Virus record (IMG/VR): IMGVR_UViG_3300045242_000214
Span: 7,880-71,879 of that record
From: a virus
Reading direction: 5' to 3' (one strand)
Length of the DNA stretch: 64,000 nt
In this document: positions 29,984 to 63,874 of the stretch, one piece after another
How positions within the stretch are numbered: position 1 is the stretch's first letter
How the letters are laid out: each line of letters starts with the position of its first letter
Notes under the pieces: generated by a model
The model's database searches: none
Seen by the model: the letters and a program-made list of their open reading frames with translations, nothing else
Told to the model about the DNA's origin: nothing
Program-made: the position numbers and the translations under genes

Positions 29984-32374
29984 TTACGAGTACCAGATGC
30001 GGCATTCGCCAGCGCCACCAACTCCGCCCGTACCGCCCGCTGCTGAGGAGGATGCGCTAGACGAACATCCCCCTCCGCCGCCGCCAGCCCCAACGCCGCC
30101 AGCGCCGCCGTTCTTGCCTGCGACCGCGGTGCCTCCGCCACCGCCCCCGCCGCCCTGGCCGCAATACGGTGTTGGGCCTTGGCCTCCGTCGCCGCCCTGG
30201 GCCGGAGTAGCGCCACCGCCACCGAGAGCGCCGCCGCCGCCGGTTGAGTAGGACTGGTTGTTGCCTCCCGCCGCCCCCACCGAGCCGACGTTGCCTGCGC
30301 TGGCTGCGCCACCTGAGCCGCCGCCTGGGCCTCCGAAGATGCTGCCGCCGCCCTGCTGCGGCCCTGCGAGACCACAGGAGCCGCCGCCAGCGCCCCCGAA
30401 CTCGGTTGCGTTACCGGCCGTGTTGGCACCGTTGATTAGTGCCGACTGACCGCCTGCGGCGGTTGTTGCAGACGCAGCTGTTGGAGTGCCTGCCGTGCCG
30501 ACGACGGCTGCGTTGAAGGCTGAGCCGCCGCAGCCGCCTGCTACACCAGCGGCCGTGCCGCCAGGACCCCCAGCGCCACTACCGGCCTTTACCAGGGTGC
30601 CGAATGTGGTCGCGGCCCCATTGGCGCCGTTCGATCCGTTCGCGCCCGCACCAGAAGCTCCCCCGCCGCCTGCGCCCGAACCGCCTGCGCCGACGGTGAC
30701 GGTAATCGTTGTTCCCGCGGCTCCGAGTGAGGCAACTGTCGGGTGAGCTATCGCGACCCCACCGCCTCCACCGCCAGAGCCGCCAGTCTTGTTGGTTGAA
30801 ACGCAGGAAGCACCGCCGCCGCCCTGGCCGCCACCACCGATGCAGACAACCTGGATCTTCTCGATGCCTGTAGGGACGATAAAGTTGCCGCCCGTCGGCG
30901 TAAATTTCGCATAGCCTCCATCAAGCAGCTGGGAGAAGAAGTTCGCGCCGTTGCACTCGATCAGGCGTGTCTCGCCCGAGTACATCGTGATCGTGGTGAG
31001 TCCGTCGATCGTCTCGGAGGCATTGGGATCGACGACAAGGACGGTCGTGCCGCCTTGGGTGTCGTTCTTGATGATGCACCACCAGCCTGCGCCGAGCGTC
31101 GCCGCAGCGGTGATTGTCTGGGTGTACGCGGAGGTAGCGCAAATGACAGCGCCGAGATCACCGGCAGCGAGGATCGTGTTGGATGAACGGGCGGAACGAG
31201 TGATGCCAGGTCCTGTTGGTCCAGTGGCCCCGGTAGGTCCTGTCGGCCCGGTTGCGCCTGTGGTTCCGACGCCCGTAGGTCCTGTCGCTCCCGTAGGCCC
31301 AGCAGCGCCGGTCGCGCCGCTGGCTCCGGTTGGGCCAGTCGAACCTGCAGGCCCCGTCGGCCCTGTAGCACCGATCGCGCCCTCCGTGATCGGGGACGCC
31401 ACATTCGAGGCGTGCGTGTTGCCGTCGAAGACGAAATGCACCGTCCGCGCCACAGCCGACGTGGTCTTCGCGAATACTTTGACCACGATTCGGTCGGTCG
31501 CAGCCAACACCGTCGCTGTCGAAGTGGTGTAACTAAGCAGTTCCTCGGCCACCGAGGTCGAGATCAGACCGCCAGTCGAGGCGACGTTGAAAATCTCCGT
31601 CTCGCTCCCGCCAGCGGTCCGCTGATAGACGCGGAAGACGAGTTGGGTGACACCGACGATCGTGTCGACATAGGTCCAGAAGTCGAACTTCCAGAGGCCC
31701 GGATCGAGTTGGACGATCCCAGGGAAGCCGACCGGGGACGCGAACGCTTGGATCAGCTTCTCACCGTCGGCGGACGCGACGGAGACGGATGCGTCTGCTT
31801 CCGTACCGCCGGAAGGAGTGTCAGCGATCACATCGTAGGTCGAGATTCCGGAAGCGACGTTCTGGAAGTAGAGGATCAGTCCGGTTGTTGCGGCTCCCGT
31901 CGCTCCTGTGGGACCAGTAGCACCCGTCGTGCCTACTCCCGTTGGACCCGTCGGCCCGGTGGCACCTGCTGCTCCGGCCCCTCCTGTGGGTCCCGTGGCG
32001 CCCGTAGCGCCGATGCCTGTCGGACCCGTTGGGCCTGTCGGGCCTGCGACACCAGCCGCGCCCGTAGCGCCAGTCGGCCCTGTGCTGCCGACGCCCGTGG
32101 GTCCGGTCGCGCCGCTGGGTCCAATCGCGCCAGTCGGACCAACTGCGCCGGTGACGCCAGTAACCCCGGTTGGGCCAGTCGCTCCTGTCGGACCCGGAAC
32201 GGTCGAGTCGGCCCCCGTTGCTCCGGTGGGTCCAATCGGCCCGGTCGCACCCGTCGCGCCAACATCACCTGTTGGCCCTGTCGGGCCAGCGACGGTACTG
32301 TCGGCGCCAGTTGGCCCAGTAGGGCCGGTTGCGCCTTGCGCCCCGGTTACGGCTTCAAATGCTGAGTTGCTCAT
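29984..32374 (-). CDS. collagen-like (G-X-T) and glycine-rich fibre protein
   Basis: long GATGPT repeats in two blocks; C-terminal Gly-rich domain ending GECRIWYS. Confidence 0.85.
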
Positions 32375-50251: not shown

Positions 50252-51057
50252 GCGAACCTCAGCGAGAACTCGACATGAGCGGCGTTCACGGCGTCAGGGT
50301 CGATGTCCAGGGCGAGCCGGTTGCCGCCGAGGTAGCCGTGATTGAGAGTGGCGACGTCGTGGGCGTGCATCTCGCCGAACCGATTCGACTCATGGCTGGA
50401 CCCTACGCGGTTCACGGGTATTCCCACGAGGCTCGACTGGGCGTGCGCCGCCATCATCGGACGGTCGAGGTCGTTCCACTGGAAGTCGCGCGCTAGCTTC
50501 GCCTCGACGGTGTTCGGATCGGACCAGTCGAAGACGTCCTGCAACAGCGGGAGCAGGTCGACGGTTCGGAAAACGTGCCCGTCGAGCGACGCGGGGTACG
50601 AGAAGTCGCACTCGGCCTGCCCCCACTCCCAGTAAAGGACACCGTCCTCGGCGCTGTGCGTCGCCGGGAGCGCCTGCGAGCACCGCAGCGGATAGCACTC
50701 CGTCGTGTTCAGCCCAAGGCGCGGCGAGAAGCAGAGCACGTCCTCGTCCTCGCACAGAATTTCGGCCGGGTCGCGGCCCTCGACCTTGCGGTAGAAGACG
50801 CAGTCGTCCATCAGGAACGCGACGTGCTCGTCCTGCTGGGCGAGCCAAAGAGTCTGGCCGCGCAGGTCGCGTTCGGCATGGAACGGAAACTCGAGGTGCT
50901 GCAACTCGCAGGTGCGATAGGCGGCAGCGTACTCGCGCTCGCCCTTCCAGATGACGTGGACGCTGTCGTAGAGGTGCGTGGCGTTCTTCTGAAGCGAGCG
51001 GAGCAGCAGGTCGAGCTGTGCGGCCCTGTTTTTGCTGAACACGATGACGGTCGTCAC
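50248..51057 (-). CDS. GT-A-like glycosyltransferase
   Basis: VIVFSKNRAAQLDLLLRSL, FLMDDCVF, YPASLDGHVF. Confidence 0.65.
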   Translation of the reverse strand: MTTVIVFSKNRAAQLDLLLRSLQKNATHLYDSVHVIWKGEREYAAAYRTCELQHLEFPFHAERDLRGQTLWLAQQDEHVAFLMDDCVFYRKVEGRDPAEILCEDEDVLCFSPRLGLNTTECYPLRCSQALPATHSAEDGVLYWEWGQAECDFSYPASLDGHVFRTVDLLPLLQDVFDWSDPNTVEAKLARDFQWNDLDRPMMAAHAQSSLVGIPVNRVGSSHESNRFGEMHAHDVATLNHGYLGGNRLALDIDPDAVNAAHVEFSLRFA

Positions 51058-51272
51058 GCGCCGCTCCCTATCGCCTGAGCCTCACCGTTCAGCTTCGGGC
51101 CGGGCGTCATCGGTCCAACCGGGCAGCCGTGCCAGACGCGGGCGCAGGTTGCGCTGCAGAAGGGGTCGGTCGCGAACGCGTCCCGGTACAGCGGCTTCAG
51201 GCCGGCCAACTTCCGTTCGCCGCCGCACTGGACACACCGTCCTGACGCAGGCACTGTCGGGTCAGGGTTCAA
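51054..51272 (-). CDS. small zinc-binding protein
   Basis: CVQCG and DPFCSATCAR. Confidence 0.5.
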   Translation of the reverse strand: MNPDPTVPASGRCVQCGGERKLAGLKPLYRDAFATDPFCSATCARVWHGCPVGPMTPGPKLNGEAQAIGSGA

Positions 51273-51552
51273 GGCGCGGCTCTCCCGGCAGCGGTTGGAA
51301 TCTCGGTCGAGTCGGCTTGCGCCAGACCCACTTCCAGGTCTGGCCGAAGAATGGCCGCTCCAGATCCTCTTGGCCGCGCTCCACCCGACCCTCCTCGAAC
51401 AGGTAGACGAGTACGAGCCGCACCCACTTGGCGCTCCTGCTGGCGCGGTCCGCCACCTCAAGCGTGCTGTGCCACTCATCGTCTACGGCAGCCTCCACCT
51501 GCAGCACGGCCTTAGAATCACCGTTCGTTCGGTAGTAGTCACCAACGCTCAC
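51262..51552 (-). CDS. wHTH-like protein
   Basis: STLEVADRASRSAKWVRLVLVYLFEEGRVER. Confidence 0.5.
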   Translation of the reverse strand: MSVGDYYRTNGDSKAVLQVEAAVDDEWHSTLEVADRASRSAKWVRLVLVYLFEEGRVERGQEDLERPFFGQTWKWVWRKPTRPRFQPLPGEPRLEP

Positions 51553-51851
51553 AGCGGCGCCTCCTCGCCGCACAGAATCGCTCGCATCAGGCGTGCCGCC
51601 GAGACACCGCCAGCCAGAGCTCGCGCCTCGATGGTTGCCCACTCGTCATCGCTGAGCATCAAGTAGTGCTGACGCAAACCGTCCTCACGATCCGACCGGC
51701 TCATCCGTTTCTCCGGGTTGAGCGCGTAGTAGGCGCCCATCTCACTCATCCCGAGGTACTTGCCAAGCTCTCTGTAGGTCCAGCGCTTGCGGTCTTGTGC
51801 GCGGAGCGTGCGGGCGCGCTCGAGCATGACCTCGCGGCTGATTTTTGGCAC
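51549..51851 (-). CDS. HTH plus ribbon-helix-helix DNA-binding protein
   Basis: WTYRELGKYLGMS and LSDDEWATIEARA..GVSAARLMR. Confidence 0.65.
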   Translation of the reverse strand: MPKISREVMLERARTLRAQDRKRWTYRELGKYLGMSEMGAYYALNPEKRMSRSDREDGLRQHYLMLSDDEWATIEARALAGGVSAARLMRAILCGEEAPL

Positions 51852-51857
51852 CGTTCT

Positions 51858-51886
51858 AGGCTACCAATATCCACATGCCGTGTCAA
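51858..51886 (-). promoter_or_regulatory. sigma70-type promoter, probably leaderless mRNA
   Basis: TTGACA-17 nt-TAGCCT with TG extension; GTG start 6 nt after the -10. Confidence 0.7.
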
Positions 51887-51893
51887 CACACTT

Positions 51894-51984
51894 GGCGCGT
51901 AGTTGCAAACAAGGGCGCCTGCTACTTAGGCGTGTAGTTACATAGGGCCGACGAACGTAGGCGGGAGTTTTGTAACTATGCGCC
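51894..51984. repeat. three copies of a 14-bp motif GGCGYRTAGTTRCA (two direct, one inverted)
   Basis: 51894-51907, 51929-51942, inverted 51971-51984. Confidence 0.65.
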
Positions 51985-52215
51985 GCAAACCCTTATGGTT
52001 CCATGAAGTCTTCTGCTGGCGGGGTTAGGGACAAAATCTTCGCGCCACTACTCAGTCTGAACAAAGTTCCGTCTCCCTAACCCACCCCCCCTGAAAGGTG
52101 GGTTGGGAGACGAAGGAACTTTGAGAAGAGGTACCAAAAAACACTGAACAGGCTTCCGGGGACGCTATCGACATTTGCCTCGCTCCACGAAAGTACGCTA
52201 CGCTCACGACCGCCC

Positions 52216-52542
52216 GTGCGCTTCCGTCGCCGCCGTGACGACAGACCCAAGCTTCCCACCGAGAAGCCCTACCTCGTCACCATCCACGCCGAGCACGACC
52301 AGTACCACACCTTCGCCATGGGACCCGGCGACGCAGTCGGCGTCGGAGCCATTCGAATCGACATCGCCAAAGACGGCAGCATCCACGCCAGCCCCAACGC
52401 GGTACCGCACGCAGAACAGGTCACGACGATGCGCACGCCGGTCTTCGTCGGCGAAACGCAGGTGAGCGGAGAAGCGCTCGCCGAAGCTGTGCGGCGCGAA
52501 TTACTCAAGGTGCATCGACGCAACGGGCCACGCACCGCATGA
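52216..52542 (+). CDS. hypothetical protein with tape-measure-like C-terminus
   Basis: coupled to next gene; ends ALAEAVRRELLKVHRRNG. Confidence 0.6.
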   Translation: MRFRRRRDDRPKLPTEKPYLVTIHAEHDQYHTFAMGPGDAVGVGAIRIDIAKDGSIHASPNAVPHAEQVTTMRTPVFVGETQVSGEALAEAVRRELLKVHRRNGPRTA

Positions 52543-53093
52543 GACGCCGCTTCTTCAACCAGCCGCTCCTCATCGGCGGACGCGAAGTCCAAGCCTTCTC
52601 GACAGGCGCCGTCCTGACCAGAAACGGACGCTGGCTCATCCTCTACACCGACCCCATTCTCGACGCCGAAGCATTCTGCAACGGCCTGCTCAAAGAAGCC
52701 TTCGACGAATGGGGACACTACGAACGCCCCGACGAATACGACGAAGCACTCCAAGAACTCCTCATCCGAGCGCTCCGCCTCGAGCGCACCTATGATCCCG
52801 AGAGGAGCCAAAGCTTTGCCGACTACGCCAGATACATCCTCCGCAGACGCGCCGCCGACGTCGGACCCCGACGCCTCCTCGGCCGCTCCGGCAACCGAAT
52901 CCACGACTACCTCCACGACACGCTGGAACCGGGCGCTGGAACAAGTGAACCTGGAGAACCTCTCGGTACGCGGTCGAGCGATCCGAATCGAGATTGGGGA
53001 GATGATGCCGTCTGGCTACCGCCTGAACGAAATCGCGAAAGAGCTCGACGTCACGCCGTCCTGGGTCTCCCAGCGGCTCGACGAGCTGCGTAG
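52539..53093 (+). CDS. sigma-70 region 2-like protein
   Basis: YDEALQELLIRALRLERTYDPERSQSFADYARYILRRRAAD. Confidence 0.65.
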   Translation: MRRRFFNQPLLIGGREVQAFSTGAVLTRNGRWLILYTDPILDAEAFCNGLLKEAFDEWGHYERPDEYDEALQELLIRALRLERTYDPERSQSFADYARYILRRRAADVGPRRLLGRSGNRIHDYLHDTLEPGAGTSEPGEPLGTRSSDPNRDWGDDAVWLPPERNRERARRHAVLGLPAARRAA

Positions 53094-53829
53094 CGAAATC
53101 GTCCTCGCCGGCGGCGGCTTCCTCCCCCTCTCAGACAGCGAATACGAAGCGCTCAAAGCGTCCATCGCCGAACACGGCCAGCGGGTCCCCGTCATCGTCG
53201 GCGCCAGCGGAGTCCTCGACGGCAAGCACCGGCTCACGGCCCTCCGCGAACTCGGCATCACCGAGGTCCTCGTCGAGTTCGTCACCGACGCAGACCCCGA
53301 AACCGAACGCCGGATCAGCCGCACCGTCAACGCCGCCCGCCGCATGCTCAACCGCGCCCAAAAGGAAGCGCTCGTCCGCGCTGAGTTGGAACAGAACTGG
53401 TCCCGCTCGAGCCGGCAAATCGCGCTCGACTGCGGCTGCAGCCCCCCGTTCGTCGAGACCATTCGCGACGCGGTACGCAGAGAACGCGAGACCGAGAATG
53501 AGGACTGGGAATTCGACGACGAACCCGCGTTGAAAGTTACTCACGACGGCAAAGAAGTTCCCGCGCCACGCAGCGTCGGCGAAGCCGTACGCGCAGCCAG
53601 CGTCCCACGCGAAGAAGAAATGCGTGTTGACGCCGGCGGAGTCCGCCGCCCCGCCTACGTACGCAAACCAGGCACCTCCCACAAAGCCAGCGAACCACAC
53701 AGCCGCTGGGCCGGACGCGAAGGCCACGCAGACCGCCCCAAAGGCCACGCAACCTGCGCACACGGCCAGCAACACGCCATCTACCGCGCCGACGACGGCA
53801 CCTGGACACTCAAACCCGACGATGGCTAA
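52945..53829 (+). CDS. sigma region 4-like HTH fused to ParB/Srx domain
   Basis: LSVRGRAI...GYRLNEIAKELDVTPSWVSQRL; LKASIAEHGQRVPVIV..VLDGKHRL; SSRQIA second HTH. Confidence 0.75.
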   Translation: MNLENLSVRGRAIRIEIGEMMPSGYRLNEIAKELDVTPSWVSQRLDELRSEIVLAGGGFLPLSDSEYEALKASIAEHGQRVPVIVGASGVLDGKHRLTALRELGITEVLVEFVTDADPETERRISRTVNAARRMLNRAQKEALVRAELEQNWSRSSRQIALDCGCSPPFVETIRDAVRRERETENEDWEFDDEPALKVTHDGKEVPAPRSVGEAVRAASVPREEEMRVDAGGVRRPAYVRKPGTSHKASEPHSRWAGREGHADRPKGHATCAHGQQHAIYRADDGTWTLKPDDG

Positions 53830-54211
53830 CCCCGAAGAACACGAACGCGCCCGCCGCGTACTCGCCATCCGCGACAACGACACGGACGACGAAGAACACC
53901 CCTTCGACCGCCTAGCCGCCGACGACCCTCGCTACCTGCGCGAACAGGCACGACTACACACACCCGGCTCAATCGACACGCTCGTGGCGATCCGAGACGA
54001 CTGGACACAGCCAGGCAGCGTGCGCAAAAGCTGCGCCGAACTCCTCCTCGCCTACGGCTGGGGAAAACCCTCAAGCCAGGCCGACATCATGCGCCTCTTC
54101 CTCGACCACGAAAACGGCGACAGCATCATTCGCTTCGAGATGCCTATGACCGTCGACGGCGTCAAAGACGATGACTCTGACGGCAAAGCACGAGCGGGCG
54201 ATCTCGGATGA
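53822..54211 (+). CDS. putative terminase small subunit
   Basis: ARLHTPGSIDTLVAI...VRKSCAELLLAYGWGKP motif typical of genes at TerS positions. Confidence 0.55.
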   Translation: MANPEEHERARRVLAIRDNDTDDEEHPFDRLAADDPRYLREQARLHTPGSIDTLVAIRDDWTQPGSVRKSCAELLLAYGWGKPSSQADIMRLFLDHENGDSIIRFEMPMTVDGVKDDDSDGKARAGDLG

Positions 54212-54357
54212 AAAGATTCTGGTCTGAGCCAACGATCAACGAGCAGTTCGGTGCACTGTGTGCCGCCGTGCGAGAACTGGGATACGAGGCGGTCAAAGCG
54301 TGGAATTCAGACGGATCGTTCAAGGTCGTCCTGATGCCAAGAAAGCAAATGCCCTAG
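54208..54357 (+). CDS. hypothetical 49-aa protein
   Basis: ATGA coupling. Confidence 0.4.
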   Translation: MKRFWSEPTINEQFGALCAAVRELGYEAVKAWNSDGSFKVVLMPRKQMP

Positions 54358-54782
54358 CGAAGCCCTCTAGGCCTAGCCAAAATATTCGGCGGGTCGTCCG
54401 CCCTCTCGCGTCCGGGCCAAGGTCGTAATCTGTGCCGCGGGGATGCCGGGGCCGGGGTGCAGCTCGGCGCTTCACTCGCTGTTCTCGGTCCTGGCGCGTG
54501 CCTGGCCGACCGCGCGCCGCTCGCTTCCCTCGCCAGCCGGCTGCTCGAGGTGGGCCGGGCGTGCCTCCCTGCGCTCACCAGAGCCCCGTGACGGCCCTGC
54601 GAGCCGCTGCGCGGGTGCTGCTACCCCCGAACGCTTAGAACGGCTCCTGCGGCCTTCCTGGGGGGTGCTGGCCTGCGTGCGCCCAGCGAGCTCGGCTGCG
54701 CTGCGCGGGCGTGTAGCGGAGTTTCGGAAGATGATCCGGCACACGTTCCGTGCCTGCGAGTCGGAGCGGGCTAACGCTGCGG

Positions 54783-54881
54783 AGCGTTACGAGGGGACGA
54801 GAGCGCAGCAGGTTCGTAACGCTTGGCAGCGCGAGAAGCGAGCGTTACGAAGTGAGCCTCGGCAGGTGCTTTCGTAACGGT
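54783..54881. repeat. two tandem units of AGCGTTACGA-N21-TCGTAACG(C/G)T
   Basis: arms at 54783-92/54814-23 and 54841-50/54872-81; 58-bp period. Confidence 0.8.
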
Positions 54882-54902
54882 AGCCTGTATTGTAAAGTCT
54901 GC

Positions 54903-54931
54903 TTGACTCCACTGGCATGGGCTGCTAGTGT
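54903..54931 (+). promoter_or_regulatory. early sigma70-type promoter
   Basis: TTGACT-17 nt-TAGTGT. Confidence 0.7.
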
Positions 54932-54970
54932 CCCTTATGTTGGAGTTTGTCTCACGGACGGAGGTCGACA

Positions 54971-55273
54971 GTGAATACCGAATCACGGTCAGTCTGGGAT
55001 CTAGACGCAGGCGACGAGTACGTAGTGCGCACGCGGGATGGCCTGCAGTCGCGCACCGTGCTAGGCGTTTTACAGCGCACGCCGTTGCACGGTGCGCTGC
55101 TTGAGGTACGCGCGGACGATGGCAACGTGTTCCGCTCGCATATGCACGGCGTCGTCGACCTTCTGACGCACGATCCCGCGTGTACGGGATGCGAGCACGA
55201 CTGCCCTTGGCGGAAGAATCCGCTCGGCGCGCCCTTCTGCTCAGTCTGCGACGATCATTGGGAAGCGGGCTAG
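54971..55273 (+). CDS. hypothetical protein with C-terminal Cys cluster
   Basis: GGAGG RBS; CTGC...FCSVCDDH. Confidence 0.6.
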   Translation: MNTESRSVWDLDAGDEYVVRTRDGLQSRTVLGVLQRTPLHGALLEVRADDGNVFRSHMHGVVDLLTHDPACTGCEHDCPWRKNPLGAPFCSVCDDHWEAG

Positions 55274-55339
55274 GACCCCTGCGGCTCGCGCCTCTCACGG
55301 GACGCGGGCCGGAGTTGTCAGCTAACGGACGGAGGAGTC

Positions 55340-55633
55340 ATGAACGGACGGAGCACTACCGGCCACGTCGACGTCATTGGTGAGATTTGGTGGCCGATGG
55401 GCGGGACGTTCGCCTACAGCTACTCGCTCGACGCCTACGACGTGGAGAACATGCGCGCCGACGATGGGAAGATCGCGCGGCGCGAGATCCAGGCGTGGCT
55501 CGATACGCACGCGGGCGATTTCTCGAGCATCGCTGATTTCTCGGCGACGATTGACGGCGCGTCGTACGGCTGGGCGGACGCTGATTCGGAGCTGACGTTC
55601 GGCGATTGCATGTACGGCTCGGAGGTGTCCTAA
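55340..55633 (+). CDS. hypothetical early protein
   Basis: GGAGGAG RBS. Confidence 0.65.
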   Translation: MNGRSTTGHVDVIGEIWWPMGGTFAYSYSLDAYDVENMRADDGKIARREIQAWLDTHAGDFSSIADFSATIDGASYGWADADSELTFGDCMYGSEVS

Positions 55634-59896: not shown

Positions 59897-60132
59897 GCAG
59901 CCACATCGCCGACCGCATGCGTCCGCCCGCGGTGCAACTCGCGATCGTGGCCTCGGTCGCCGACGAGCTCGGTGCGCTCGAATGGCGTTCGGTCGTTCTG
60001 CGCGATCGGCTCTACGACGCCGTGCGCGATGCCGTGGAGGCAGGGTTCGCGCAGGTGCGCGTCGCTGAGGCGGCCGGCGTGTCGAGGCAGCGCGTCGGTC
60101 AGATCATGGCGATGTTCGAGGTGCCGGAGTGA
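59893..60132 (+). CDS. small HTH protein
   Basis: AGFAQVRVAEAAGVSRQRVGQI. Confidence 0.7.
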   Translation: MSSHIADRMRPPAVQLAIVASVADELGALEWRSVVLRDRLYDAVRDAVEAGFAQVRVAEAAGVSRQRVGQIMAMFEVPE

Positions 60133-60329
60133 CGGACTACTTCCATCGCTTTGTGCTCACGGACGGCAGCGTGATCGTGGTGCCGCACCGGCAGGCGCAG
60201 CGCGTCCTGGACGTGCGCGACAACCGGCGCATACCGGAGACGGTCTGGGAGGTCACGCTCGACAGCGGTCTCGTGCGTCGCTTTTGGCCTTCCGACCTGC
60301 AAGAATGGTCTCAGGAAGAAGTCAAGTGA
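60129..60329 (+). CDS. hypothetical protein
   Basis: coupled ORF. Confidence 0.5.
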   Translation: MTDYFHRFVLTDGSVIVVPHRQAQRVLDVRDNRRIPETVWEVTLDSGLVRRFWPSDLQEWSQEEVK

Positions 60330-61222
60330 GACTGCCGAGATTCCGCCGCGCCGTTCCTGAGCCCTCGGCTCGCCAAGTCCGCGACGACTGGCTTGAGTGG
60401 CTACGCCTCAGCGCGTTCAGTCCCTTGACGATCAAGGGCTACCGGCTCACAACTGATCGAATGCTCGCACGCTGGCCGGAGCTGACGTTCTCCGAGTTCA
60501 CCGACGAGCACATCCTCGGGATCATCGAGGATTCCAAGCCGGCGTCACGGCAAGCCCGGCGGTCGGCGTTCCAGAACTGGTTTCAGTGGGGCGTCAGGAC
60601 GAAGCGGATCGAGCGTGATCCGATGCGACACGTCCAGACGTACAAGCCGGCCCCGCGTCCTCCGGTCGAGGTTTTCACGGAGGCCGAATGCAAGGTGCTC
60701 TGTTCGCTGCCGGAACCGGATGGCACGCTCATGGCGATCCTGCTCGGCACTGGACTACGGAAGGCAGAGGCTCGGAACCTCATGGTCAAGCGCGTCGACC
60801 TTGACCACGCCGAGATCCATGTGGTCGAAGGAGCAAAGGGCGGCTCGACCGGGATCGTCCCGATCGAGCACAAGCTCGTCTCCCGGCTTGCCGAGTATTT
60901 CCTGCTCGAGGGGCTGAACGGCGACGACTATTTGTGGTACTGCCATCCGGGCGGTCATCCGACGCGTCGCCACGATCGTCCTCTCGTTGACGCGTCGATG
61001 CATATGTGGTGGGCGCGGTCGATCAAGGCGTCAGGGATTCCGTATCGGAACATGCACGTCACGCGACACACCTACGCGACTGAGTGGCGCCGGCGTGGTC
61101 TGGCGATGGATGACGTAGGGACGCTGCTGCGTCACGCTGATTTTCGGACAACCCAGAGGGTTTACGTGCACACCAAGCTGATTGACGTTCGCAAGCGGAT
61201 GGAGGCGTGCCCGCCGCGATGA
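60326..61222 (+). CDS. tyrosine recombinase / integrase (Xer-like size)
   Basis: TGLRKAE, AKGG, HVTRHTYA, LLRHADFRTTQRVY. Confidence 0.9.
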   Translation: MRLPRFRRAVPEPSARQVRDDWLEWLRLSAFSPLTIKGYRLTTDRMLARWPELTFSEFTDEHILGIIEDSKPASRQARRSAFQNWFQWGVRTKRIERDPMRHVQTYKPAPRPPVEVFTEAECKVLCSLPEPDGTLMAILLGTGLRKAEARNLMVKRVDLDHAEIHVVEGAKGGSTGIVPIEHKLVSRLAEYFLLEGLNGDDYLWYCHPGGHPTRRHDRPLVDASMHMWWARSIKASGIPYRNMHVTRHTYATEWRRRGLAMDDVGTLLRHADFRTTQRVYVHTKLIDVRKRMEACPPR

Positions 61223-61503
61223 CTCATCACGACGGAGAAATTGGGAATGTTCGCGAGAAAGCTGCCGCAACTCCGTCGCGGCCACGGCGCTCGTACCAGG
61301 TCGAGCCGTTCCACGAGCCTGACGGTCGCAAGACGTGGGCTGTGAAGGAGATCGTGGTCGGGCCGCACGGCTACTTCCTGCGGCATCTCATCAGCTTCCA
61401 CGAGACGTTCACCGAGGCTGATCGCCAGCGCGAGAAGATGAAGCTGCGGGAGCGCGAAGGCTCCTGGGGCGAACCATACGAGGGGGCGATGCTCGATGCC
61501 TGA
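61219..61503 (+). CDS. hypothetical protein
   Basis: coupled ORF. Confidence 0.5.
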   Translation: MTHHDGEIGNVREKAAATPSRPRRSYQVEPFHEPDGRKTWAVKEIVVGPHGYFLRHLISFHETFTEADRQREKMKLREREGSWGEPYEGAMLDA

Positions 61504-62644: not shown

Positions 62645-62814
62645 CTGCCGCTACTCCGTCGCGGCCAGCCTCCTGGAGGCGCTTCTGTCTCGCCTCGCTT
62701 GACCAGACGCTGATTGCCTGCACGAAGCGACCGGGACACAAGGGCGACCATGAGTGGGAGGCGGATCGCTGGGAGCGTTTCGTCGAGATGCGAGCCAAGG
62801 AGCTTCGCTCGTGA
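62641..62814 (+). CDS. small Cys/His protein
   Basis: FCLA...CTKRPGHKGDH; GTGA coupling on both sides. Confidence 0.5.
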   Translation: MTAATPSRPASWRRFCLASLDQTLIACTKRPGHKGDHEWEADRWERFVEMRAKELRS

Positions 62815-63651: not shown

Positions 63652-63874
63652 CGATCAGCCTGCCGCTACTCCGTCTGGGCGTGACGCTACAGTGGACGAT
63701 TCCGCATCGGCTGCTAGTGCTTCCGTCACGCAGGCGGGGTCGGAGATCGCACCTTCGGCCCCGCTCGGACTTCATACTTGGCGCGACGGTTGGATCTGCG
63801 AATGCGGGGAGTACCAGCTTGTCGCCAGTGAGATTCCGGGCGTCGCTTACCCCGAAAAGGTGCGGCGTGGATAA
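63641..63874 (+). CDS. hypothetical protein
   Basis: overlapping ORF with WICECG. Confidence 0.4.
   Translation: MPSNDQPAATPSGRDATVDDSASAASASVTQAGSEIAPSAPLGLHTWRDGWICECGEYQLVASEIPGVAYPEKVRRG

Follow-up and report, generated by a model that had tools for sequence, protein, structure and literature searches.

A putative two-part phage σ factor encoded in overlapping reading frames, with its region 4 fused to a ParB-type module

Split σ factors have been described for Bacillus subtilis (SigO-RsoA), T4 (gp55/gp33), SPO1 (gp33-gp34), and Tn916 (Sig7-Sig8), as set out in bioRxiv 10.64898/2026.10.01.756105. Separately, in the KorB, BisD, and VirB systems, a ParB-type protein controls transcription at a distance, according to the accounts given in PMC11790492 and PMC12409273. 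Only a few systems are known of either kind, split σ factors or ParB-type transcription clamps, and the locus analyzed here would link both. It consists of two overlapping open reading frames (ORFs), ORF A and ORF B, at 52539-53829 on the plus strand of a 64,000-nucleotide (nt) stretch of phage DNA, hereafter the window, which corresponds to bases 7880-71879 of a 71,879-bp IMG/VR virus record (IMGVR_UViG_3300045242_000214) that has direct terminal repeats and is rated complete. The phage comes from soil and has a GC content of ~64%. We consider the chance somewhat better than even that the two ORFs encode a split σ factor made of two polypeptides, the region 4 half of which is fused to ParB. 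In the literature, taken without supplements, we found neither a fusion of σ region 4 with ParB nor a comparable frame-split or frameshifted phage σ factor.

ORF A (184 amino acids [aa]; ATG 52539 to TAG 53093) matches the Pfam family Sigma70_r2 with an E value of 3.7e-7 and 30.3 bits (cutoff 24), and it has no Pfam match to region 4. Its core, residues 1-129 (52539..52926), comprises an N-terminal beta hairpin and the helices of σ region 2 and ends in the conserved ...GNRxHDYLHDxLE; behind it, a tail of 55 residues of off-frame type that ends in ...RRAA (52927..53093, with the TAG at 53091-53093) is predicted to be disordered. The AlphaFold2 (AF2) model shows the same division, with a predicted local distance difference test score (pLDDT) of 81-95 over residues 1-110 and of 38-55 in the tail. 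When this model was compared with known structures (VIA), chains of σ domain 2 were frequent among the top rows, with Z scores up to 5.9. Foldseek gave no match to the model at an E value of 0.001 or better, and the profile of alignment A5 gave none among the PDB sequences at an E value of 0.01. Among ten relatives of ORF A (P0037 to P0046), nine matched Sigma70_r2 at an E value of 0.01 or better and none matched region 4.

After a TGA at 52615, the +1 frame stays open over 52618-53829, and ORF B, read from a conserved TTG, occupies 52816..53829 of it (337 aa). Its predicted product is built from a proline/threonine/serine (P/T/S)-rich extension, region 4, a ParB N-terminal domain, a helix-turn-helix (HTH), a variable linker, and a small C-terminal domain. 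A preliminary description of this DNA had reported that ORF A holds a region 2 without a region 4 and that ORF B, in the +1 frame, overlaps it by 149 nt from GTG 52945 and contains an HTH, a ParB domain, and a second HTH; all of this is borne out, and counted from TTG 52816 the overlap grows to 278 nt. The TAG of ORF A (53091-53093) falls within the ELRS codons of ORF B.

The N-terminal HTH of ORF B is weak in Pfam (HTH_23, 2e-4; Sigma70_r4, 0.11), and its assignment comes from matches to single-frame σ factors. A profile from the N-terminal 66 residues of ORF B and of its homologues, covering the σ region 4-like domain RALEQVNLENLS...RLDELRSEIVLAGGG (52930..53119, plus strand), was searched against 49 σ region 2 relatives (P0037 to P0085). 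It matched eight of them (P0068, P0063, P0072, P0054, P0082, P0067, P0076, and P0064; 181-199 aa), in the C-terminal 50 residues and in frame with region 2, with E values from 5.6e-11 to 1.4e-4 in this small database. A region 2 match at an E value of 0.0012 or better is present in seven of these eight single-frame relatives, and P0054 reaches the Pfam cutoffs for both domains, with 27.1 bits for Sigma70_r4_2 (cutoff 25.7) and 24.0 bits for Sigma70_r2 (cutoff 24). Because these distant relatives carry both domains contiguously in one frame, ORF A and the N terminus of ORF B can be read as the halves of one small σ factor, and by homology the N-terminal HTH of ORF B is the cognate region 4. This homology is the strongest support for a two-part σ factor.

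The switch between the two frames is a real coding feature. The GC content at third codon positions (GC3) in frame A is 0.77 before 52926, and over 52945-53093 it is 0.40 in frame A versus 0.82 in frame B. Outside the sequencing runs, the one relative available as DNA is L062, a 1333-bp contig of a metagenome-assembled genome (MAG), which encodes A (73-80% identity) and B (61%) in the two corresponding frames and aligns through the junction without a gap. Substitutions relative to L062 shift from the wobble positions of frame A before ~52900 to those of frame B after ~52960, and within the tail of ORF A they sit on codon position 1 of frame A. The frame-B residues R-A-L (52930-52938) are kept in L062 by three synonymous changes that alter the frame-A residues; from these changes it follows that constraint on frame A stops at ~52928 (...HDTLE) and constraint on frame B begins at ~52930.

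Relatives at several distances retain this arrangement. Contig 8 of run X2 (5162 bp) is ~89% identical to the window over 52538-53442, contig 16 of run X3 covers 52838-52994, and both cross the junction free of indels; in run X1, the likely sample of origin, one contig is identical to the window. Six close homologues of ORF A (150-185 aa) are conserved until ...GNRxHDYLHDxLE and diverge beyond it. Across 22 A-type sequences at 30-79% identity, the tail residues R164, L175, and G176 are conserved at 90% or more, and these three are the frame-A reading of the N-E and W-V codons of the frame-B HTH (NEIA...SWV). Since A-type tails down to 30% identity thus mirror the HTH, a region 2 ORF overlapping an HTH in the +1 frame is a trait of a deep family, and because relatives keep the same split, it is a maintained design. 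The doubt raised in the preliminary description, that this copy might simply be broken, is settled by the overlap being conserved in L062, X2, and X3 without a junction indel.

No fused form came to light. When ORF A residues 1-134 were searched exhaustively, 50 proteins matched, none above 274 aa, and among the 29 matches to ORF B (161-515 aa) an in-frame region 2 was present in none of the 13 close ones that were aligned. At the DNA level, a pattern search of genome contigs gave three loci, with L062 as the sole relative; ORF A was not found in the two genomes with L061 (a Nocardia genome) and L063 or in a sample of 401 genomes from the phylum of that Nocardia. The phage collection had no match to 52300-54000 by blastn or to ORF A by tblastn. 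In viral contigs, the ORF B search yielded two distant ParB loci only and the search with alignment A2 none, while the DNA pattern for GPRRLLGRxGNR hit no locus and a looser pattern hit 60, none of them confirmed by tblastn. In metagenome contigs, A1 gave no confirmed locus and P0002 gave 57; these are all distant relatives of ParB, and a region 2 relative accompanies none of them. Because gene callers give either ORF A or a long ORF B, never both, the family is systematically misannotated.

As to where ORF B begins, GTG 52945, the start proposed in the preliminary description, is not supported: X2 and X3 have GTC at this codon, L062 ATC. Upstream of region 4, the window and L062 have a single canonical frame-B start in common, TTG 52816. 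It is preceded, 8 nt upstream, by a Shine-Dalgarno-like AGGAG (52803..52807, plus strand) that is the same in L062; the 4.7 kb from 50800 to 55500 contain two AGGAG on the plus strand, the second of which stands just before ATG 55340, a gene start. Both elements depend on uncommon codon choices in ORF A. TTG 52816 exists only because Phe93 of ORF A is coded TTT, which accounts for 24 of the 185 Phe codons in ten long genes, and the AGGAG contains AGG, a rare codon that encodes 28 of 400 Arg residues. Eight of 13 close ORF B homologues start with M precisely at the position of TTG 52816 and continue over the junction through the same P/T/S-rich stretch of the +1 frame.

The part of ORF B behind region 4 has the features of the ParB family. 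A ParB/Srx N-terminal domain (53116..53394), which has the GxxR motif as DGKHR and a stretch similar to box III, NAARRML, matches PHROGs at 1.7e-12 to 8e-4, those of the ParB families at 2.4e-9 and weaker, and ParB sequences of the PDB at 4.8e-8 to 1.2e-4. Alignments of ORF B to Caulobacter and Myxococcus ParB continue through the central HTH (53398..53511; helices 164-197 of the model), which occupies the position of the ParB DNA-binding domain. The AF2 model of ORF B has a mean pLDDT of 75, and its best Foldseek rows are Noc, Spo0J, ParB-CDP, and KorB, at a probability of 1.00. DGKHR aligns to GERR of ParB, G101 and R104 being invariant in 16 sequences; the Arg of GxxR is required for nucleotide binding in BisD, as described in PMC12409273. 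NAARRML aligns to ParB box III (N..R) with N137, R140, and R141 invariant, and the acidic Glu that precedes the Asn is replaced by Val (TVNAARR). In ParB, the residues of box III (ENxxR), including this Glu, serve the hydrolysis of cytidine triphosphate (CTP). Beyond a variable linker, modelled at low confidence, ORF B ends in a small beta domain of three strands (53743..53817; pLDDT 88-92) with the motif C-x-H-G-x-x-H, in which C322, H324, G325, and H328 are invariant in 14 ORF B sequences. This domain matched no family and may serve as a metal site or in dimerisation.

The far end of ORF A bears on whether its tail is made as protein. A C-terminal Ala-Ala is found in 26 of 56 family members (P0030 to P0085), in varied sequence contexts and regardless of tail length. 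It is found in six of the eight single-frame σ factors, on tails of differing length, and in the split family it occurs at differing stop positions (...LGLRAA, ...RRAA, ...DLAA, ...AIAA, and ...LPAA). In the orphan extracytoplasmic function (ECF) σ factor AntA of Streptomyces, Ala-Ala at the C terminus makes the protein a ClpXP substrate (described in PMC7142297). Because the Ala-Ala end matches this degron of AntA, ORF A is probably translated through to its own stop, and the recurrence of the ending suggests that ClpXP-type turnover is a trait of the σ family to which ORF A belongs. It also suggests that phages time their own σ factor through proteolysis by the ClpXP of the host, a mode of control demonstrated to date for a single bacterial ECF σ factor.

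Three other explanations of the locus have to be set against a two-polypeptide σ factor. One of them, raised in the preliminary description, starts from an exact direct repeat: two copies of CGCTGGAAC, 13 nt apart (52921-29 and 52934-42, plus strand), sit exactly on the switch point, and deletion of one 13-nt unit would join the frames (...HDTLEQVNLENLS...) into a single one. Both the repeat and its effect are as stated there, and they would suit a broken or phase-variable gene, in which a recent 13-nt duplication put a σ-ParB gene out of frame, reversibly by slippage. However, the split is also present in L062, which has neither an indel nor a second copy of the repeat, the corresponding stretch reading CACTAACCA; in X2 and X3, likewise free of an indel, the second copy is imperfect (52940 A>C); and the split reaches A-type proteins at 30-50% identity. 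The likely source run, X1, has one contig equal to the window, and the contigs of all three runs, which cannot show rare variants, contain no 13-nt length variant. Repeats of this kind are, moreover, about as frequent as expected by chance: the window has five exact direct repeats of at least 9 nt spaced by 9-30 (multiples of 3 excluded), and shuffles give 7.45 (all spacings). A broken or phase-variable gene is thus largely refuted by these comparisons and strikes us as highly improbable; the repeat is a clade-specific coincidence at a place where frame B has to encode RWNRAL; it did not cause the split and is no switch. An ancestral 13-nt duplication was also considered as the origin of the split and is not supported, the two units matching at 4 of 13 positions in L062. 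What stands of the earlier interpretation is the two-part σ-like factor with region 4 fused to ParB, carried by the homology to single-frame relatives; phase variation does not, and the clamp behaviour and the role as late activator that it also suggested are conjectural.

A programmed +1 (or -2) ribosomal frameshift near 52920-52930 would instead yield one protein of ~430 aa (...HDTLE / RALEQVNL...) and leave ORF A as an unshifted by-product. That the split is kept across a deep family fits such a shift, as does the meeting of frame-A and frame-B constraint within ~10 nt; the joined product would have the ordinary ECF layout seen in single-frame relatives, and just upstream of the junction, at 52893-52935, 43 of 44 nt are identical between the window and L062, with 13 codons free of synonymous change. 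Yet at the junction itself (52900-52950), no slippery codon, rare codon, or stop is recognizable in the window or L062; the CTG-GA motif is not universal, distant A-type proteins showing EYD, EFG, or PTGD; and the RNA fold of 52890-53010 is unremarkable (z -1.03). ORF A also extends 55 codons beyond the junction and retains the -AA end of its family, and ORF B has a conserved TTG and AGGAG of its own, all of which makes a frameshift quite unlikely in our judgment. The remaining explanation holds that the two genes no longer cooperate: ORF A would be a region-2-only factor like T4 gp55, or a decaying remnant, and ORF B a ParB-type regulator or partition-like protein that uses its former region 4 as an extra HTH and makes no contact with RNA polymerase. 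Distant B-type proteins (P0014 to P0016; 277-340 aa) do begin at the HTH and lack region 2 in their own sequence, and KorB and BisD, as presented in PMC11790492 and PMC12409273, are ParB-family regulators and not parts of a σ factor. Against this, both halves are under purifying selection and lie next to each other in every relative that could be examined, and region 4 is still recognizably like that of intact single-frame σ factors; we regard a loss of cooperation as unlikely.

Several observations weigh against the two-polypeptide σ factor that we prefer. The overlap of 278 nt, with 40-55 unselected codons per gene, is unusual for two ordinary genes and resembles that expected of a frameshift, and the exact abutment of frame A (to ~52928) and frame B (from ~52930) fits a ribosomal shift equally well. 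In structure, ORF A matches σ domain 2 at middling Z scores (5.9 or less) that are tied with those of unrelated rows, and the Foldseek E values behind the ParB match of ORF B are only ~2e-3. The count of eight of 13 homologues starting at TTG 52816 is biased, since the gene caller starts there only where the codon exists, and conservation of the TTG and AGGAG was assessed in few independent lineages, namely, the DNA of L062 and difference tables for two contigs. Some of the Ala-Ala ends are not independent, because part of them fall at one common stop position forced by the ELR codons of frame B. A scan of 51500-54300 for σ70-type promoters gave no site, no promoter motif was identified, and parS-like palindromes with arms of at least 8 nt number four in the window versus 5.7 in shuffles, none of them repeated. 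Finally, the products of ORF A and ORF B are predicted from DNA alone.

Building on what the comparisons show at the sequence level (σ ancestry of both halves, a conserved split, start signals in front of ORF B, and ParB-family features within it), the two-polypeptide σ factor can be pictured as follows. An ancestral small ECF-type σ factor, composed of region 2, linker, region 4, and an Ala-Ala end, would have been split by a change of frame in the linker, and the phage lineage would have retained it as two overlapping genes. ORF A, translated from ATG 52539 to TAG 53093, would supply region 2 and the disordered off-frame tail ending in Ala-Ala, whereas ORF B, started independently at TTG 52816 behind AGGAG, would supply a 337-aa protein of extension, region 4, and ParB module. 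Both proteins would act jointly on the host RNA polymerase as a two-subunit σ factor, the ORF A protein binding the beta-prime clamp helices and reading the -10 element, region 4 of ORF B binding the beta flap and reading the -35 element, and the ParB module anchoring or sliding region 4 on phage DNA. The ORF A protein would be short-lived by virtue of a ClpXP-type Ala-Ala degron. The pairing of a promoter-recognition domain with a ParB module suggests a direct path from DNA loading or sliding to the recruitment of RNA polymerase. It is tempting to go further and to speculate, as a doubtful extension by analogy, that region 4 rides on a CTP-gated ParB clamp that is loaded on phage DNA, slides, and delivers -35 recognition and flap binding to RNA polymerase that carries the short-lived region 2 subunit; this would be a ParB counterpart of the mobile enhancer of T4 (gp45-gp33-gp55) and would make late or middle transcription depend on the state of the phage DNA.

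ORF A and ORF B are the second and third genes of a tightly packed plus-strand operon that starts past a lower-GC divergent region (51852-52215), the structural genes being carried by the minus strand. The operon opens with a 108-aa ORF of unassigned function (52216..52542, plus strand; no PHROG match), the TGA of which overlaps the ATG of ORF A in ATGA, and the stop of ORF B overlaps the ATG of the next gene (53822..54211, plus strand; no PHROG match) in ATGGCTAA. At 53559-53708, in the variable linker of ORF B, the third frame, that of the downstream gene (ORF 53624-54211), has a GC3 of up to 0.90 and frame B one of ~0.6; that gene may have an earlier start that overlaps ORF B. Over 52001-54000 the strands are strongly asymmetric (AT skew +0.287, GC skew -0.157), the plus strand being rich in A and C over the σ and ParB genes, an asymmetry absent elsewhere. 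The lower-GC divergent region that separates the minus-strand genes from this operon contains, at 52070-52112, a strong inverted repeat (TCTCCCTAACCCACC ... GGTGGGTTGGGAGA) that may act as a terminator or as a hairpin with a regulatory role.

Elsewhere in the window, a tyrosine integrase is encoded at 59972-61222 (phrog_1, E value of 1.2e-35), because of which the phage is probably temperate. Downstream of it, near the right end, CTGCCGC(A/T)ACTCCGTC... occurs in three plus-strand copies (61262-61284, 62645-62667, and 63660-63682), exact over 16 nt and similar over up to 23 nt, with flanks that do not align; another part of the record has a fourth copy, on the minus strand and with two mismatches. 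These copies may be operators, promoters, or protein-binding sites. Within the minus-strand gene 29984-32374, the stretch 31212-32350 contains many diverged copies of CCNGTNGGN with a period of 9 nt, which on the coding strand read as a collagen-like Gly-X-Y repeat and probably belong to a tail fibre protein.

How, then, does the locus compare with the systems described so far? As in the split σ factors named at the outset, the functions of region 2 and region 4 would lie on separate polypeptides of a phage or mobile element, in an early or regulatory operon, the comparison being one of layout. Unlike in SigO-RsoA and the others, the halves here are overlapping frames of one former gene, with an overlap of 278 nt, each half is homologous to a contiguous σ relative, and a ParB module is covalently attached to the region 4 half. 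The locus thus offers a clean natural gene fission kept as a long overlap, for which ancestral-type and derived forms can both be compared. AntA resembles ORF A in being a small ECF-type σ factor with no obvious anti-σ factor and a C-terminal Ala-Ala, the features on which the comparison rests; it differs in that the Ala-Ala of the phage protein stands on the off-frame tail of a region-2-only protein.

With KorB of RK2 (PDB 8qa9; PMC11790492), BisD of ICEclc (PMC12409273), and VirB, all encoded by mobile elements, ORF B shares a ParB N-terminal domain with GxxR followed by an HTH. As far as those accounts describe them, KorB and BisD work with separate partners (KorA or TrbA for KorB, BisC for BisD) and a host σ factor, whereas here ParB is fused straight to region 4; ORF B also lacks the acidic residue before the box III Asn (TVNAARR), and no loading site was found in the window. 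The remaining parallel is with late transcription in T4 (gp55, gp33, and the gp45 clamp) and with MuC and the beta clamp in Mu (PMC12867686 for Mu), where the likeness would lie in a DNA-tracking clamp that brings a partial σ factor to promoters. The top structural rows of ORF A, tied with one another, include chain 7d7d_F from the gp45-dependent activation complex of T4 (Z of 5.9, root mean square deviation of 3.7, 86 aligned residues), at a Z score that does not discriminate. In contrast to T4 and Mu, the clamp of the phage described here would be of the ParB type instead of a PCNA- or beta-type ring, and it would be fused to the σ part rather than attached to it through a clamp-binding peptide.

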